DNA of 64,000 nt. It comes from Candidatus Omnitrophota bacterium (GTDB lineage: Bacteria; Omnitrophota; Gorgyraeia; 2-01-FULL-45-10). Numbering within the stretch: position 1 is the first letter of the stretch; every line of letters begins with the position of its first letter. Below the pieces are notes generated by a model. It ran no database searches. It was not told the origin of the DNA and saw only the letters and a list, made by a program, of their open reading frames with translations. Position numbers and translations under genes: made by a program. The DNA lies in the NCBI GenBank assembly GCA_020057115.1, contig JAGVGJ010000010.1, positions 615 through 64,614 of the forward strand. Direction: 5' to 3'. Below are positions 27-9,697 of the stretch, piece after piece.

Positions 27-2057
27 ATGATAGAGGCATCCATGCGTCCAAAAGCCCGGCCCAGAAATGAAGACGGGACATTTAAGAACCATCCTGGTAA
101 GAGTCCGGGAGACGCATTAAAAGTCATCGCATTGTCGCGATTGTCCATCAATCAGCATTTTACATTGGAAGCATACCTGATGTTTTACGAAAAAGTACGC
201 CGAAATTATCCCGAACTCGGATTTGAGAAGCTCGCCAATAATCCCAAGACTACGGCCAAGCGGGACTTAAAAGCGCTTTTAAACCAGGGCTTCTTGGGAA
301 TGGTTTACCAGGGAGGAGTGTCCTACTATTTTCTTTCGGATAAAGGCTGGGACGAGATAGTAAAAAACCTTGGACAGAAGACTGGAAATAAAGACGAGAA
401 ACAGGCATTGATAGAAACTGTCCTTAACCGTAAGATCGCAGTATATAGCCTTCTTATAGATATATTGAGCCGCGTTCCTGGTCAGGAGAACCTGCATCTT
501 CAATATGTAAAGGAACTGCGAGATCTGTTGAAAGGCGAAAGGACTTCCGGGCAGAAAATAGCAATATGCGCGGGCCTCATAAAATCATGCAATATGAGTT
601 TCAAATATGAGGGCGTGATCATGCTGAGACAATTGCTCGCGAAAGCGCTTTATCGCGACGAACAGATAGCGATCAATAGCGCTCTTGCGGAAGCGTATAA
701 GCAGGAAACGGCCCAACTGCAACACTACGTATATGCCTTAAAAAATTTATCGGTCACGGATATAACGCTTGATCAAGAGATAGCAATATGTGCAGGGCTG
801 GTTAAGTCGCGCGACTACCCTACTAGGAGGGATTGCATAACCTCCCTGAAGAGTTTGCTTGGCGCTGGTCTTAGCGTTGACCAGAAGATAGCCGTGTATA
901 GCGCTTTCATAGAAGCGTACGGACAGGAGCATACCACTATACCCAGACAGAGTATATATGTAAGTAATCTTAAGGAGATGCTGAGCGGTAGCTTAAGTTT
1001 TGAACAGAAAGTCGCTGTCTATTCCGGCATGGCGAAGGCCATTGACGGCGATGTGCGCAAAGAAGCGCTGCTCATGCTGCTGAAAGAAGAGAAGGGGGAT
1101 AGCCAGTCCCGTGAAGCTGACGGCACGTTCGGCAGGAAGCTCGGTAGAAGCCCGGAAGACGCCATAACCATAATAGCCCGCTCCGGACTTTACATGAAAG
1201 AATCATTTACGATAGATGATTATCACGAAGCATATAATTCCGAAAAGGCGGCGCTGGGATTTTCTTCGCTTCCCGAAAATGCCGATTCACAGACCAGGCG
1301 CGATCTGGAAGCGCTTATAGAAAAAGGCCTGCTTTTTATAGAAAATCTGGGAGAGAGGGGCGTCCCTTATAGGTATAGCCCTACCCGGCAGGGGTTGGAT
1401 GTATTTTGGCACCTGGATATAGGCAGGATAATAGCACTTGTGACAGATACCGCAAAGTATATACCGACCCATCCGAACTATCGATACACGCTTCTTGTGA
1501 CATCCGAGTTCTTCGATAAAGGCGAGCTGAAGGCCCATCAGTCGAAGTTCGGGGACAGGTTCGAGCTTGACGGCGTGAGCGGTATTACAGACGGGCAATT
1601 TATCGACAATGCGCTCGCTAAGGCCAAAGATAAAGAGACCAGGACGGTCGTCCTTGTGCCGGACAATATCAATCCTGAGCAGCTCGAAAGATTGTCGAAG
1701 GCCGGGATCAGGTTCGTGCAGGTCAACGTAAGCGTGCTATTACAGTCGAAGATGGATGCGGCCAAAGACGGCGGAACCTACAGAGACGATTTTCAATTGA
1801 ATACCTATTGCATAATGCTCCTCGTACGCAGGGTAGATGACAGCATGGAGAAGGATTCTTCGATATACAGAACGCTGGAATTCTATATAAGGTCTCATTT
1901 TGATCTTACCGATAAAGTCGCCGTTACGGACTATATAAATGCTATAGTGAAAGGGGACGTGGCCCGGCTCATCAAAGGGTGCCTGGCATACAAGCCTTCG
2001 ACGTCATATATTATGCCAAGTTATAATAGTGTCTCAGCTGCGCTCATAAGCGCATAA
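27..2057 (+). CDS. hypothetical protein with an internally duplicated architecture (two winged-helix-like segments each followed by helical QKIA(I/V)(C/Y)(A/S)G-type repeats)
   Basis: Complete ORF with an AAGGA RBS 5 nt upstream of ATG at 27. Translation shows the N-terminal segment (EDGTFKNHPGKSPGDALKVIALSRL...TAKRDLKALLNQGFLG) repeated at about aa 360 (ADGTFGRKLGRSPEDAITIIARSGL...QTRRDLEALIEKGLLF). The motif QKIAICAGLIKS/QEIAICAGLVKS/QKIAVYSAFIEAY/QKVAVYSGMAKA recurs four times. No recognisable catalytic motif. Confidence 0.6.
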   Translation: MIEASMRPKARPRNEDGTFKNHPGKSPGDALKVIALSRLSINQHFTLEAYLMFYEKVRRNYPELGFEKLANNPKTTAKRDLKALLNQGFLGMVYQGGVSYYFLSDKGWDEIVKNLGQKTGNKDEKQALIETVLNRKIAVYSLLIDILSRVPGQENLHLQYVKELRDLLKGERTSGQKIAICAGLIKSCNMSFKYEGVIMLRQLLAKALYRDEQIAINSALAEAYKQETAQLQHYVYALKNLSVTDITLDQEIAICAGLVKSRDYPTRRDCITSLKSLLGAGLSVDQKIAVYSAFIEAYGQEHTTIPRQSIYVSNLKEMLSGSLSFEQKVAVYSGMAKAIDGDVRKEALLMLLKEEKGDSQSREADGTFGRKLGRSPEDAITIIARSGLYMKESFTIDDYHEAYNSEKAALGFSSLPENADSQTRRDLEALIEKGLLFIENLGERGVPYRYSPTRQGLDVFWHLDIGRIIALVTDTAKYIPTHPNYRYTLLVTSEFFDKGELKAHQSKFGDRFELDGVSGITDGQFIDNALAKAKDKETRTVVLVPDNINPEQLERLSKAGIRFVQVNVSVLLQSKMDAAKDGGTYRDDFQLNTYCIMLLVRRVDDSMEKDSSIYRTLEFYIRSHFDLTDKVAVTDYINAIVKGDVARLIKGCLAYKPSTSYIMPSYNSVSAALISA

Positions 2058-2092: not shown

Positions 2093-2131
2093 GGACGCCC
2101 TTGTGCCATGCGAGGGCGTCCTCTTGTTTTT
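2093..2131 (+). terminator. rho-independent terminator-like hairpin (GGACGCCC...GGGCGTCC followed by TCTTGTTTTT)
   Basis: 8-bp GC-rich perfect stem with an 11-nt loop, immediately followed by a T-rich run. Located 36 nt downstream of the stop of the 27-2057 ORF. Confidence 0.55.
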
Positions 2132-2364: not shown

Positions 2365-3732
2365 ATGCTGATAGATACGCATTGCCATCTGGATTTCAAG
2401 GATTTTGACAACGACCGGGACGAGGTGATCGCACGCGCCAGGGATGCCGGCATTCTCAAAATAATAAATGTCGCAAGCTCCATAGAGGGGACGCGTCGCG
2501 CATCAGAGCTTGCAAAAAAATATGAGGCGGTCTATGCGACGGTCGGGATACACCCTCATGCGGCCGAGACTGTTACGGACGAAGCGATCGATGAGCTTAA
2601 GAAAATAGCTAAAGAAGACAAAGTCGTGGCTGTCGGCGAGGTCGGGCTTGACTATTACCGCAACCTCGCGCCTAAAGATAGGCAGGCGGATGCTTTTAGA
2701 AGGTTTATAAGGCTTGCCGTGGAAACCGGCAAGCCTTTGATCATCCATTCAAGAGAAGCGGATAATGACATTTTGGGCATATTGCGCGAGGAGTGCGGCA
2801 ATACGGTAAAAGGCGTAGTCCACTGCTTCGCCGGGGATGAGAAGTTCCTTGAGGATTGTCTCGGCATGGGGTTATATATATCGTTTACGGCAAATCTTAC
2901 TTTTAAGAAGGCGGATAATTTAAGGACGGTCGCGAAACGCGTTCCGATCGAGCGCCTGATGCTCGAGACGGATGCGCCGTTCCTGGCGCCGCAGGATGTT
3001 CGCGGGAAGAGGAATGAACCCGCTTACCTGACGTACCTGGTGAAGGAGTGGGAAAACATATCGGGGCTTTCCGCCGAGGATATCGCAAGGATAACGACCC
3101 ATAATGCCAACAGATTATTCGGCCTGAACATCCGCGAAGATACGAGGATCGTTTATCCGATAAGAGGATCCCTGTATCTCAACATAACCAACCGCTGCAC
3201 GAACAATTGCTATTTCTGCGTCCGCAATTCCACTGAGTTCGTAAAAGGGCACAACCTGAAGCTCGACAAGGAGCCTTCCGAGCCGGACGTCCTGGCAGCG
3301 ATGGGCGATCCTAAGAAGTATAAAGAGATAGTCTTCTGCGGGTATGGCGAGCCGACCATAAGGCTGGATGAGGTAAAGTCTATTTCACGGAAGATGAAGG
3401 CGCTGGGGCTTAAGGTGAGGCTTGTGACCAATGGCCACGGCGATCTCATAAATAAGCGTCCGATAGCCGCTGAATTGTCCGGGCTTATAGACAGGATATC
3501 GGTCAGCATGAATGCCGAAGACGCGGATAAGTACGAAAAGATATGCGAGCCGGCCTTCGGAGCTCTTTCGTACAAGGCGGTCCTGGATTTCATAAAGGAT
3601 TGCGTCAATAACAAGATCGATGTCGAGGTCACTTGTCTCGACCTTCCGGAGATCGATATGGCGAAGTGCGAATCCCTCGCGAGGTCTCTTGGGGCCAGGT
3701 TCCGCCCGAGGTCATACGGGGTGGTCGGATGA
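2365..3732 (+). CDS. TatD-family metal-dependent hydrolase fused to a C-terminal radical SAM domain (TatD-associated radical SAM type)
   Basis: N-terminus MLIDTHCHLDF plus internal HxH, HCF and ETDAPFL motifs typical of TatD DNase/hydrolase. From about aa 265, NITNRCTNNCYFCVRN (CxxxCxxC radical SAM cluster motif) and FCGYGEP resemble the small radical SAM family normally encoded next to tatD. Here both parts are in one continuous ORF. Confidence 0.8.
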   Translation: MLIDTHCHLDFKDFDNDRDEVIARARDAGILKIINVASSIEGTRRASELAKKYEAVYATVGIHPHAAETVTDEAIDELKKIAKEDKVVAVGEVGLDYYRNLAPKDRQADAFRRFIRLAVETGKPLIIHSREADNDILGILREECGNTVKGVVHCFAGDEKFLEDCLGMGLYISFTANLTFKKADNLRTVAKRVPIERLMLETDAPFLAPQDVRGKRNEPAYLTYLVKEWENISGLSAEDIARITTHNANRLFGLNIREDTRIVYPIRGSLYLNITNRCTNNCYFCVRNSTEFVKGHNLKLDKEPSEPDVLAAMGDPKKYKEIVFCGYGEPTIRLDEVKSISRKMKALGLKVRLVTNGHGDLINKRPIAAELSGLIDRISVSMNAEDADKYEKICEPAFGALSYKAVLDFIKDCVNNKIDVEVTCLDLPEIDMAKCESLARSLGARFRPRSYGVVG

Positions 3733-4811
3733 AGAAGATGCTCGAGTTCATGCGTAAAGAGAGGCTTTATCTGTTGCTTCTCTTATTCATCATTCTGGTC
3801 AATACCATAGTCATGACGGAAGGGGACGGAGAAAAGCAAAGGCCTGCTAAAACCAAAACGGAGCTCAAAACCTCCGCGGTGCCTGAGACTAAAGGCGTTG
3901 AAGAGAAGCGCCAGAACACCCTCTTCATGAAGCGCGAGCAACTCGAGGAGGCCCTTACCAAGAATAAGACGCTCGCGGCGCTATTTGGCCTCGTGTCCTT
4001 ATTTATAACGGTCATCCTTCTTCTGGGCATAGTGATAGATATCCTTCTTACATCATTACGGATGAGCAAGAAGAGCGCCGAGATCCACACCTACAGGCCT
4101 CCACCGGCCAGATGGAACATCTGGGATGTCGCGAGGGTGGTGATACTCTTCCTCTTCTTCGGCTACATGCTTGTGATAATAGAATCACTGCTTTTGCGGG
4201 TTATTCCAATACTTAAAGACGATAACTTCAGGATGATGGTAAATACCTCGATACTGGACACGCTTGCCGTAGTATTCATAATATACTTTACCGTGAACCA
4301 GTATAAAGAGGATCTCGTATCCCTCGGCCTGTCCGCAAAGAATTTCGTCAAGAACGTCTTCTACGGGCTGGTGGGGTATATAGCTGCCGCGCCTATACTC
4401 GTCTTGATACTCGCACTTGTGGCGCTAGTGGTCCAGATCACGAAATACGTCCCGGAAACGCAGCCGGTCGTGGAACTATTCCTTAAAGAGGAGAATGCGC
4501 CGTTCCTGGTATATACGAGCATATTTACCGCCGTGTTAGGCCCGGTCATAGAAGAGCTTTTCTTCAGGGCCTTCATGTATAATGCGTTCAAGAAGACGAT
4601 AGGGATATTCTGGGCGATGCTCATAACATCCGCGGTATTCGCGAGCCTCCATACGAATATCGTGGGGTTCTTCCCGATAATGGCCCTTGGCGTGCTCCTC
4701 GCGTATATGTATGAGAAGACGGGTACGCTGGTATCGTCGATAACTGTCCACATGCTGCATAATTTAAACATGGTCTTCCTGGTGTTCTTGATGAAACAGA
4801 TAAAGGCATGA
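3729..4811 (+). CDS. CPBP-family (CAAX/Abi-type) intramembrane metalloprotease, polytopic membrane protein
   Basis: Multiple hydrophobic helices. C-terminal motifs EELFFRAF (EExxxR), FASLH and HMLHN match the CPBP signature. Start placed at the ATG overlapping the upstream stop (ATGA) rather than the ORF-track start at 3633, which lies inside the previous gene. Confidence 0.75.
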   Translation: MKKMLEFMRKERLYLLLLLFIILVNTIVMTEGDGEKQRPAKTKTELKTSAVPETKGVEEKRQNTLFMKREQLEEALTKNKTLAALFGLVSLFITVILLLGIVIDILLTSLRMSKKSAEIHTYRPPPARWNIWDVARVVILFLFFGYMLVIIESLLLRVIPILKDDNFRMMVNTSILDTLAVVFIIYFTVNQYKEDLVSLGLSAKNFVKNVFYGLVGYIAAAPILVLILALVALVVQITKYVPETQPVVELFLKEENAPFLVYTSIFTAVLGPVIEELFFRAFMYNAFKKTIGIFWAMLITSAVFASLHTNIVGFFPIMALGVLLAYMYEKTGTLVSSITVHMLHNLNMVFLVFLMKQIKA

Positions 4812-5920
4812 CGTTAATGGCGAAAGTATCGATCGTGAGGTGTCAGGATTACGATAGCTCGAAGGTCTTCGAGGCCGTAAAGAGGTCGGTCGACCTTGTG
4901 GGCGGGATGGGAGAATACGTAAAGCCGGGGATGAAGGTCCTCATAAAGCCGAACCTCCTCTCTGACAGGAAGCCGGAGGACGGCGTAGATACGCATCCCG
5001 AGGTGGTGAGGGCTATAGTAAAGCTTGTAAAGGCATCGGGCGGGACCGTGATGATAGGCGATTCGCCGGGAGGATACGGGAAGAACATAGACGAGATATT
5101 CGAGTCGTCCGGCATGAAACTCGTGGCTGAAGAAGAGGGCGCAGAGCTCGTCAAATTTACGAACTCAAGGTTTGTCGACAACATACCTGTCGCCCGGCAG
5201 ATATTCGAGGTCGACAGGATCATCTCCGTGCCGAAACTTAAGACGCACTGCGTAACCGTCATAACTGCCGGGATAAAGAATGTCTTCGGCGCCGTTACGG
5301 GATTATACAAGGCGTCCTGCCATTCAAAGGCCCCGAAAGAAGAGGATCTGGCTAAGATCCTCGCCAAGGTATATTCAATAGTAAGGCCGCACCTTACGAT
5401 CCTTGACGGGATAGTCGCGATGGAAGGCGATGGCCCGTCATCCGGGACATTAAGGAAGATGGACCTTGTCATGGCAAGTGCCGACGCGGTGGCGATGGAC
5501 TCGTGCGTCGCCAGGGTGGTGGGCCTTGAACCGGGCGACATAAGGCTCATAACCGAGGCCCATTCTAACGGCCTCGGAGAGATGGACCTTAAAAAAATAG
5601 AGATAGTCGGGGATGACATAGGCTCGTTCGTCGCCAAGGATTTTAAGCTGCCGCAGACGGCGCCGCTGAAGATCCTGCCGCGCGCTTTATTGAACAGCCT
5701 TGCGGCGCTGGTCAAGTTCAACCCGGTTATAAACGCCGCCTTATGCGCCAGGTGTAACCTATGCAAAGTGACATGTCCGGTCAGCTGTATCACCATAGAG
5801 GAGAGGTCGTGCTCTATTGATTACGCGAAGTGCGTCAGATGCATGTGCTGTCACGAAGTCTGCCCGTACAGGGCGATAGATATAAAACGGAACTTTTTAG
5901 CGAAGGTCATATGGGGGTAA
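4808..5920 (+). CDS. DUF362-domain protein with C-terminal 2x[4Fe-4S] ferredoxin-type domain
   Basis: N-terminal region (VSIVRCQDYD...VKPGMKVLIKPNLL) resembles the DUF362 family. The C-terminus carries two CxxCxxCxxxCP ferredoxin motifs (CARCNLCKVTCP, CVRCMCCHEVCP). Confidence 0.75.
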   Translation: MTLMAKVSIVRCQDYDSSKVFEAVKRSVDLVGGMGEYVKPGMKVLIKPNLLSDRKPEDGVDTHPEVVRAIVKLVKASGGTVMIGDSPGGYGKNIDEIFESSGMKLVAEEEGAELVKFTNSRFVDNIPVARQIFEVDRIISVPKLKTHCVTVITAGIKNVFGAVTGLYKASCHSKAPKEEDLAKILAKVYSIVRPHLTILDGIVAMEGDGPSSGTLRKMDLVMASADAVAMDSCVARVVGLEPGDIRLITEAHSNGLGEMDLKKIEIVGDDIGSFVAKDFKLPQTAPLKILPRALLNSLAALVKFNPVINAALCARCNLCKVTCPVSCITIEERSCSIDYAKCVRCMCCHEVCPYRAIDIKRNFLAKVIWG

Positions 5921-9361: not shown

Positions 9362-9697
9362 ATGGCGAAGAGGATATTTTTCGTTGTCCTTATTTTGTTA
9401 TTGGTTGCGAGTTTTGCGGCTGACGCGTATTGCGATACGCCGATAAAGAAGATCGGAAGGGGTATCTGCAACATACTTACCTGCCCTCTTGAATTTGTAG
9501 CGCAGATAGGCCAGGTGAATAAATCAGACGGTCCCATGTCTGCCGTCACTTACGGCGTAGCCAAAGGCGTGGTGATGGTATTGGTAAGAGGCGTCGTCGG
9601 AGTCTACGAGACGGTGACGTTCCCGCTGCCTTTCCCGCCGGATTATAAACCGATATTGACAGATCCCGAATTCGTATTCGAGGACATGAGCTGGTAG
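9362..9697 (+). CDS. small secreted protein, paralog 1. Resembles the exosortase-system-associated small protein family (TIGR04073-like).
   Basis: Perfect SD AGGGAGG 6 nt upstream. N-terminal signal peptide. Conserved core KKIGRGICNILTCPLEF...GVAKGVVMVLVRGVVGVYETVTFPLP. Family assignment is from memory of the KLGRGxxNxxxxPxEI motif, not from a search. Confidence 0.6.
   Translation: MAKRIFFVVLILLLVASFAADAYCDTPIKKIGRGICNILTCPLEFVAQIGQVNKSDGPMSAVTYGVAKGVVMVLVRGVVGVYETVTFPLPFPPDYKPILTDPEFVFEDMSW

Follow-up and report, generated by a model that had tools for sequence, protein, structure and literature searches.

A TatD-type hydrolase fused to a TIGR04038 radical SAM domain in a Candidatus Omnitrophota genome: an ordinary member of a catalogued two-domain family

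The question raised by this locus is whether a gene that joins a TatD-type hydrolase to a radical S-adenosylmethionine (SAM) domain is an oddity or a regular protein, and what the two halves might do together. The gene lies on the forward strand at 2365..3732 of a stretch of 64,000 nucleotides from a Candidatus Omnitrophota bacterium (assembly GCA_020057115.1, contig JAGVGJ010000010.1, positions 615 to 64,614), which as a whole we call the window. A first description made from the letters alone (the sequence-only reading) had presented it as a TatD hydrolase covalently joined to a radical SAM partner that is usually separate. We found that the gene belongs, as an ordinary member, to a widespread, catalogued two-domain family, that the fusion architecture was already known and that the instance in the window is typical of it. 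Our best explanation overall combines this membership with a role as a bifunctional nucleic-acid enzyme, and we give the combination a probability slightly better than even (about 0.55).

Two intact domains in one reading frame

The open reading frame (ORF) at 2365..3732 (+) runs through 455 codons to a TGA stop and contains no internal stops or frameshifts. Residues 1-253 (2365..3123, +) form a TatD-type binuclear metal hydrolase domain, a short variable linker covers residues 254-261 (3124..3147, +), and residues 262-455 (3148..3729, +) form a TIGR04038 radical SAM domain with a minimal (beta/alpha)6 core. Profile searches with the window protein matched TIGR00010 over the full length of the model (residues 2-253, 285.1 bits against a cut-off of 206), PF01026 (residues 3-253 on model positions 1-253, 295.9 bits against a cut-off of 27) and TIGR04038 (residues 262-451 on model positions 2-191 of 192, 245 bits against a cut-off of 129.7). 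The C-terminal half also scored 54.3 bits with the radical SAM superfamily model PF04055. The E-values of the domain matches lay between 1e-73 and 1e-88, which excludes matches by chance. TIGR04038 describes proteins fused or adjacent to a TatD gene, and in the window both parts lie in the same ORF; a second copy of either domain was not found in the window. An identical protein has already been deposited in NCBI and JGI/IMG under the name "TatD DNase family protein". We regard the identity and architecture of the protein, a Group II TatD hydrolase fused to a TIGR04038 radical SAM domain, as close to certain.

These results bear out most of what the sequence-only reading had said about the protein itself. 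It had taken the first about 260 residues for a complete TatD hydrolase, which the full-length matches to TIGR00010 and PF01026 confirm, and had assigned the C-terminal half to the TatD-associated radical SAM family, an assignment upheld by the TIGR04038 search that it had proposed. The two motifs on which it had relied, CTNNCYFC and FCGYGEP, are present where it had placed them, and its description of a single polypeptide holds: this is a true covalent fusion encoded by an uninterrupted 455-residue ORF, with the active-site residues of both halves intact.

The TatD half begins with DTHCHLD (residues 4-10), which includes the HxH motif (H6-C-H8; 2380..2388, +) that is the signature of Group II TatD proteins. 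This motif defines the group, to which YcfH, YjjV and TATDN3 belong and whose members hold two metal ions (PMC10085689, PMC4176340). When 72 fused orthologues were aligned, the 70 sequences that extend to H6 and H8 all had both histidines, and E92, H128, H153 and D203 were invariant in all 72; the identities of the metal ligands are those given in PMC4176340. The best solved relatives of this half are 1J6O (Thermotoga maritima TM0667), 2GZX (Staphylococcus aureus TatD), 6L25 and 1YIX (YcfH), at 183-208 bits, and E. coli TatD (148 bits) and YjjV (126 bits) are more distant. By these comparisons the TatD half falls in the YcfH/YabD clade within Group II. The cut-off of the best-matching NCBIfam equivalog, NF008075, was not reached (218.8 bits against 438); as this is an enterobacterial model, we claim relatedness at the level of the clade only.

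In the radical SAM half, the CX3CX2C [4Fe-4S] cluster motif CTNNCYFC provides C278, C282 and C285 (3196..3219, +) and is followed by the FCGYGEP motif (3334..3354, +), which contains an invariant fourth cysteine, C325, and which we take to be the family version of the SAM-binding GGE motif. C278, C282, C285, G326, G328 and E329 are invariant in all 72 fused orthologues. Beyond the cluster cysteines, the invariant residues specific to the family are C325, Y264, Y271, N273, R352, S381, Y390 and R449. When conservation was compared block by block among these orthologues, the radical SAM half was conserved no less than the TatD half. Both catalytic centres are therefore under purifying selection, and the radical SAM domain is not a degenerate iron-sulphur or binding module.

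An AlphaFold2 model of the radical SAM domain, built from an alignment of 112 sequences, reached a predicted local distance difference test score (pLDDT) of 96.2 and a predicted template modelling score (pTM) of 0.91. In this model an N-terminal hairpin and the cluster loop accompany a partial beta/alpha barrel of six strands, and an auxiliary-cluster domain is absent. A fold search identified the minimal core of pyruvate formate-lyase (PFL)-activating enzyme (PDB 3C8F, 16% identity) as its nearest solved structure, and a sequence search of the PDB with the domain gave marginal matches only (PqqE, E = 0.004). The domain shows the features that define the radical SAM superfamily, namely the CX3CX2C motif, a GGE-type SAM motif and a partial triosephosphate isomerase (TIM)-barrel fold, and is predicted to be a proper member of it.

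Prevalence of the fusion and its junction

How often the two domains are fused was addressed in protein clusters and in genomes. The radical SAM half was used in an exhaustive HMMER search of 1.84 billion representatives of clusters at 50% identity and matched 1652 clusters at E<=1e-3, of which 251 remained at E<=1e-30. The best 150 clusters, typed by a second search with the TatD half of the window protein, comprised 95 fused proteins (75 full-length, of about 440-485 amino acids, and 20 truncated at the N terminus), 42 complete free-standing proteins of about 195-215 amino acids and 13 uninformative fragments. Fusions become less frequent farther from the query: they make up 29 of the 30 top ranks and 10 of the 30 at ranks 121-150. 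Even if every unseen cluster is assumed to be free-standing, the fused form makes up at least 95 of the 251 clusters at E<=1e-30. A word-indexed search with the radical SAM half had suggested fusions with a truncated TatD part, as it returned no match longer than 347 amino acids; this class was rejected when the exhaustive search gave the 440-485 amino acids mentioned above, with domain scores as good or better, and when one of the short matches proved to be a frameshift fragment (L001, below). Word-indexed searching with a query of 200 amino acids may restrict the length of the targets, and its length distribution, being unfit for judging architecture, was not used.

When one genome per GTDB species was scanned for the family motif, at least 598 of these species-level genomes contained it. 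The carriers come from Omnitrophota, Planctomycetota, Nitrospirota, Nitrospinota, Desulfuromonadales/Geobacter, Acidobacteriota, Elusimicrobia, Bacillota, Bacteroidota and further groups, and the distribution is centred on anaerobic lineages. The 80 best loci were examined, and in 70 of them TatD and radical SAM are encoded in one open frame; elsewhere in this set a TatD gene lies directly upstream (two loci) or 3.7 kb upstream (one locus), or the contig ends (one locus, L002). Given the fused share in both the clusters and the loci, the statement that the radical SAM partner is usually separate is unsupported for this part of the family. The survey of fused against adjacent genes for which the sequence-only reading had called instead makes fusion the majority architecture among near relatives. 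A neighbour-joining tree of the radical SAM domain, made without support values and hence not used to count fusion or fission events, showed one clade in which free-standing forms prevail (25 of 32 members), with the remainder interspersed. The architecture is, moreover, a catalogued one: NCBIfam classifies TIGR04038 as a "subfamily_domain".

The junction itself is regular. In 66 of the 72 fused orthologues the anchor residues 250 and 266 are spaced by 16-17 amino acids, and the borders are recognisable on both sides, TatD ending in ...LFG(L/I) and the radical SAM domain starting with ...(I/V)xYxIRxSLYLN. That so short a linker keeps its length from phylum to phylum favours a fixed arrangement of the domains and disfavours an assembly artefact. 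That two neighbouring genes were merged by a mistake in assembly or sequencing is very improbable, since an in-frame junction with this linker length recurs in 70 species-level genomes and in 75 full-length representatives; the open frame at the junction in so many independent records excludes an artefact in practice.

The split forms are informative about the relation between the two genes. In an Elusimicrobia locus (L036, 7980-8000), TatD ends in ...LPLAGV-TAA and the ATG of the radical SAM gene follows directly in the same frame, so that fused and split forms differ by about one codon, which suggests translational coupling. This pair occupies the metG-tatD-radical SAM slot, as the fused genes do. 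Judged from this junction and slot, the fused and the translationally coupled split forms are equivalent and interchangeable. Another locus (L080) has a genuine two-gene arrangement, with the genes in different frames.

Errors of the opposite kind, in which a fusion is broken, do occur in public assemblies. In the nearest relative, from the Omnitrophota assembly GCA_026387155.1 (L082), a single in-frame TAG at 4592-4594, where the window protein has S235, interrupts a TatD::radical SAM gene; conserved TatD sequence resumes past the TAG and runs into the radical SAM domain. This TAG could be a sequencing error, a mark of a pseudogene or a site of read-through. Gene callers split the locus into a TatD protein of 236 amino acids and a radical SAM protein of 200 amino acids (P0009), so that the closest apparently free-standing relative, at 64% identity, is a broken fusion. 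In a second case (L001; GCA_001312085.1, BBCX01000001.1) nearly all genes are in two or three pieces that belong to the same Pfam family, which marks the assembly as rich in frameshifts; the "TatD+rSAM" protein of 303 amino acids from this locus (P0060) is a fragment of a full fusion. For annotation this means that some entries counted as free-standing are broken fusions, and that the public names of full-length fusions hide the radical SAM half: others of them are on record under the names "TatD family hydrolase" or "YchF/TatD family DNA exonuclease".

Gene neighbourhood

Neighbouring genes were clustered across the 80 best loci and the recurrent ones were identified by Pfam. Upstream of the fusion we found genes for thymidylate kinase, DNA polymerase III delta', PSP1/RicT and methionyl-tRNA synthetase, and downstream those for a YabE-like G5/3D protein and RsmA/KsgA. 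The order in the relatives is tmk-holB-ricT-metG-(TatD::radical SAM)-yabE-ksgA, and metG lies directly upstream of the fusion in about 28 loci from many phyla. The fusion in these relatives holds the housekeeping slot of plain ycfH in E. coli, where we take the gene order to be tmk-holB-ycfH, and of yabD in Bacillus. yabD is listed as the orthologue of ycfH and is linked to metG and ksgA and to translation genes (PMC3814617).

The gene upstream of the fusion in the window (27-2057, +) encodes a protein of 676 amino acids that has no Pfam match and contains internal repeats, with QK(I/V)A(I/V)(C/Y)(A/S)G... occurring four times and "EDGTF...SP.DA...IA" modules twice. It is followed by a strong terminator-like element (2093..2131, +; hairpin at 2093-2121) with a stem of 13 bp, including eight G-C pairs, and then a T run, which places the start of a new transcription unit at the fusion gene. 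Rfam and promoter scans of the region upstream of the fusion gave no riboswitch and only the terminator of the upstream gene. On the other side, a gene for a CPBP/Rce1-like membrane protease (3729..4811, +) overlaps the TGA of the fusion gene through an ATGA at 3729-3732, and a neighbour of this type recurs downstream in other Omnitrophota loci. The protease gene is followed by one for a DUF362 protein with a 4Fe-4S ferredoxin domain, the two genes together covering 3729-5920 (+), and a DUF362 gene also lies downstream of the fusion in the Omnitrophota locus with the in-frame TAG (L082, 5365-6354) and in the locus at a contig end (L002). This DUF362/ferredoxin protein could conceivably donate electrons to the radical SAM cluster, a functional link that is possible. 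Farther downstream, at 9398-9474 (+), the window has a sub-threshold Rfam match to the small RNA CyVA-1 (26.4 bits against a gathering threshold of 41.4, E = 0.022), which probably arose by chance.

Proposed function and known systems

We propose that the two domains form one bifunctional enzyme with one common substrate. The radical SAM domain would cleave SAM reductively to form a 5'-deoxyadenosyl radical, and this radical would take a hydrogen from either a sugar or a base that has been damaged, most likely with a nucleic-acid 3' end or an abasic-type lesion as the substrate. Before or after this step the binuclear metal centre would hydrolyse the substrate, in the manner of the 3'-exonuclease or apurinic/apyrimidinic (AP) endonuclease step known for YcfH, which acts as a 3'-exonuclease on single-stranded DNA and as an AP endonuclease on double-stranded DNA (PMC10085689). 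The minimal, PflA-like open half-barrel may suit a macromolecular substrate, and the mostly anaerobic distribution may fit an accessory step that is sensitive to oxygen and supplements a housekeeping nuclease. We offer this mechanism of nucleic-acid end processing as a tentative one. It is possible, with a similar degree of doubt, that in many anaerobic phyla the housekeeping YcfH/YabD hydrolase recruited a minimal radical SAM domain for a hitherto undescribed reaction, in which metal-dependent hydrolysis is coupled to the radical-initiated processing of a nucleic-acid 3' end, of a lesion or of an aminoacyl-tRNA that is aberrant. If true, this would amount to a repair or proofreading step specific to anaerobes and would disclose what the YcfH clade really acts on in the cell. 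The sequence-only reading held that covalent fusion implies obligate cooperation of the two active sites. Obligate cooperation may reasonably be presumed from the constant short linker, the split form that differs by one codon and the conservation of both catalytic centres.

Several observations weigh against a joint function of this kind. Five of the 80 loci contain a free-standing radical SAM gene with no TatD gene within the 4-8 kb flanks, and the neighbours of these TatD-less genes (efflux, Crp, oxidoreductase) include no consistent partner. In one cluster a TIGR04038-class radical SAM domain is fused to a GGACT/AIG2-like gamma-glutamyl cyclotransferase domain (P0247, 334 amino acids), which suggests that the radical chemistry may not need TatD. 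Another protein (P0195, 336 amino acids) carries the domain behind an unannotated N-terminal segment of about 140 amino acids; the radical SAM domains of the two score 207-208 bits, and such partner variants could help to work out the substrate. The AlphaFold2 model of the full-length protein, computed from a single sequence, had a pLDDT of 58 and is unusable for the geometry between the domains. The window also departs from the syntenic pattern, as metG is not upstream of the fusion and the gene for the 676-amino-acid protein stands in its place. In addition, E. coli cells without all three TatD paralogues grow normally and are sensitive only to H2O2 (PMC10085689), so that for the YcfH clade, too, the substrate in the living cell is uncertain. 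The literature searched for TIGR04038, IPR023821 and "TatD-associated" contained no experiment on any member of the family, in agreement with the earlier statement that the substrate of the pairing is uncharacterised; the sole mention of IPR023821 in it was as a clustering example in a preprint.

The main rival reading is a function in translation quality control, in which the fused enzyme would act on the 3' end of a tRNA or on an aberrant (e.g. D-) aminoacyl-tRNA, the TatD domain hydrolysing the ester or trimming the 3' end and the radical SAM domain acting on the attached group or the terminal ribose. We consider this doubtful. With metG directly upstream in about 28 loci and ksgA downstream, the synteny fits it equally well, but the same operon holds the replication genes tmk and holB, and for this reason synteny does not discriminate between DNA and tRNA. 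The GGACT partner found in place of TatD comes from a family whose members release amino-acid derivatives, which speaks for an aminoacyl substrate; on the other hand, we know of no role for radical chemistry in deacylation. The activities of YcfH on DNA are clear (PMC10085689), whereas the link of yabD to translation genes (PMC3814617) and the reported hydrolysis of D-aminoacyl-tRNA point the other way. According to PMC10711561, which cites Wydau et al. 2009, D-aminoacyl-tRNA is hydrolysed by Synechocystis DTD3, a TatD-family protein, and by E. coli YcfH but not by TatD proper, and DTD3 is a recognised cyanobacterial chiral proofreader (PMC10954443).

It is more unlikely that the radical SAM domain serves as the activase or maturase of a protein, possibly of the TatD domain itself, and would modify it post-translationally in the way that PFL-activating enzyme modifies PFL. 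The minimal half-barrel without an auxiliary-cluster domain would be in keeping with this, and the covalent 1:1 link would keep the enzyme and its putative target together; to our knowledge, however, activases act catalytically and are seldom fused to their targets. The score with the NrdG-type model TIGR02495 (NrdG2) was 25.7 bits against a cut-off of 131, the family has free-standing members without a TatD neighbour and one member fused to GGACT, and the YcfH orthologues of aerobes are active without such a partner (PMC10085689). A part in anti-phage defence, with a QatD-like TatD nuclease working beside a radical SAM enzyme that, like viperin, produces chain-terminating nucleotides, was rejected as highly improbable because the family cut-offs were failed (NCBIfam QatD, 114.2 bits against 230; prokaryotic viperin, 34.8 against 180) and the synteny is of the housekeeping type. 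PADLOC matches were weak, the context (tmk, holB, metG, ksgA) is not a defence island, and the position of the gene is conserved in a family present in at least 598 species-level genomes. We retain the bifunctional nucleic-acid enzyme as the preferred reading.

As a typical representative of a family already on record, the gene matters little as a finding in the window. The family merits attention, as it represents a strongly conserved, functionally uncharacterised radical SAM enzyme that at least about 600 species-level genomes carry in a core housekeeping operon. The part that the YcfH/YabD clade plays in the cell is unsettled as well, since both DNA repair and D-aminoacyl-tRNA deacylation have been put forward, and the fusion offers a ready-made 1:1 complex for biochemistry and a reasonable target for an enzymology laboratory.

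Among known systems, PFL-activating enzyme (3C8F) resembles the radical SAM half in fold only, at the low identity given above, and the activase models were not reached; NrdG-type activases further differ in that the neighbourhood of the window gene contains no glycyl-radical enzyme partner. The nearest sister model is TIGR04100 (rSAM_pair_X), which describes a family that is also uncharacterised: the window protein scores 181.4 bits and its relatives 190-235 bits against a cut-off of 262, below it in every case tested. Synechocystis DTD3 belongs to the same TatD superfamily and, by its description in PMC10711561, is closer to YcfH than to TatD; it lacks a radical SAM domain and offers a tRNA-linked reading of the synteny with metG. 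The HxH motif and all metal ligands are shared between the window protein and E. coli YcfH, Bacillus subtilis YabD and T. maritima TM0667, which, unlike it, are single-domain proteins without a radical SAM partner. The operon slot of YcfH and YabD is also that of the relatives of the window gene, and by analogy 3'-exonuclease and AP endonuclease activities would be expected. Closest of all is TIGR04038 / IPR023821, "TatD family nuclease-associated radical SAM protein", which agrees with the window protein in motifs, in the link to TatD and in architecture. Its free-standing members have slightly higher model scores (252-282 bits, compared with 245 for the window protein) and its members often have metG as a neighbour, which the window gene does not; otherwise there is no difference of substance between the window protein and this family.

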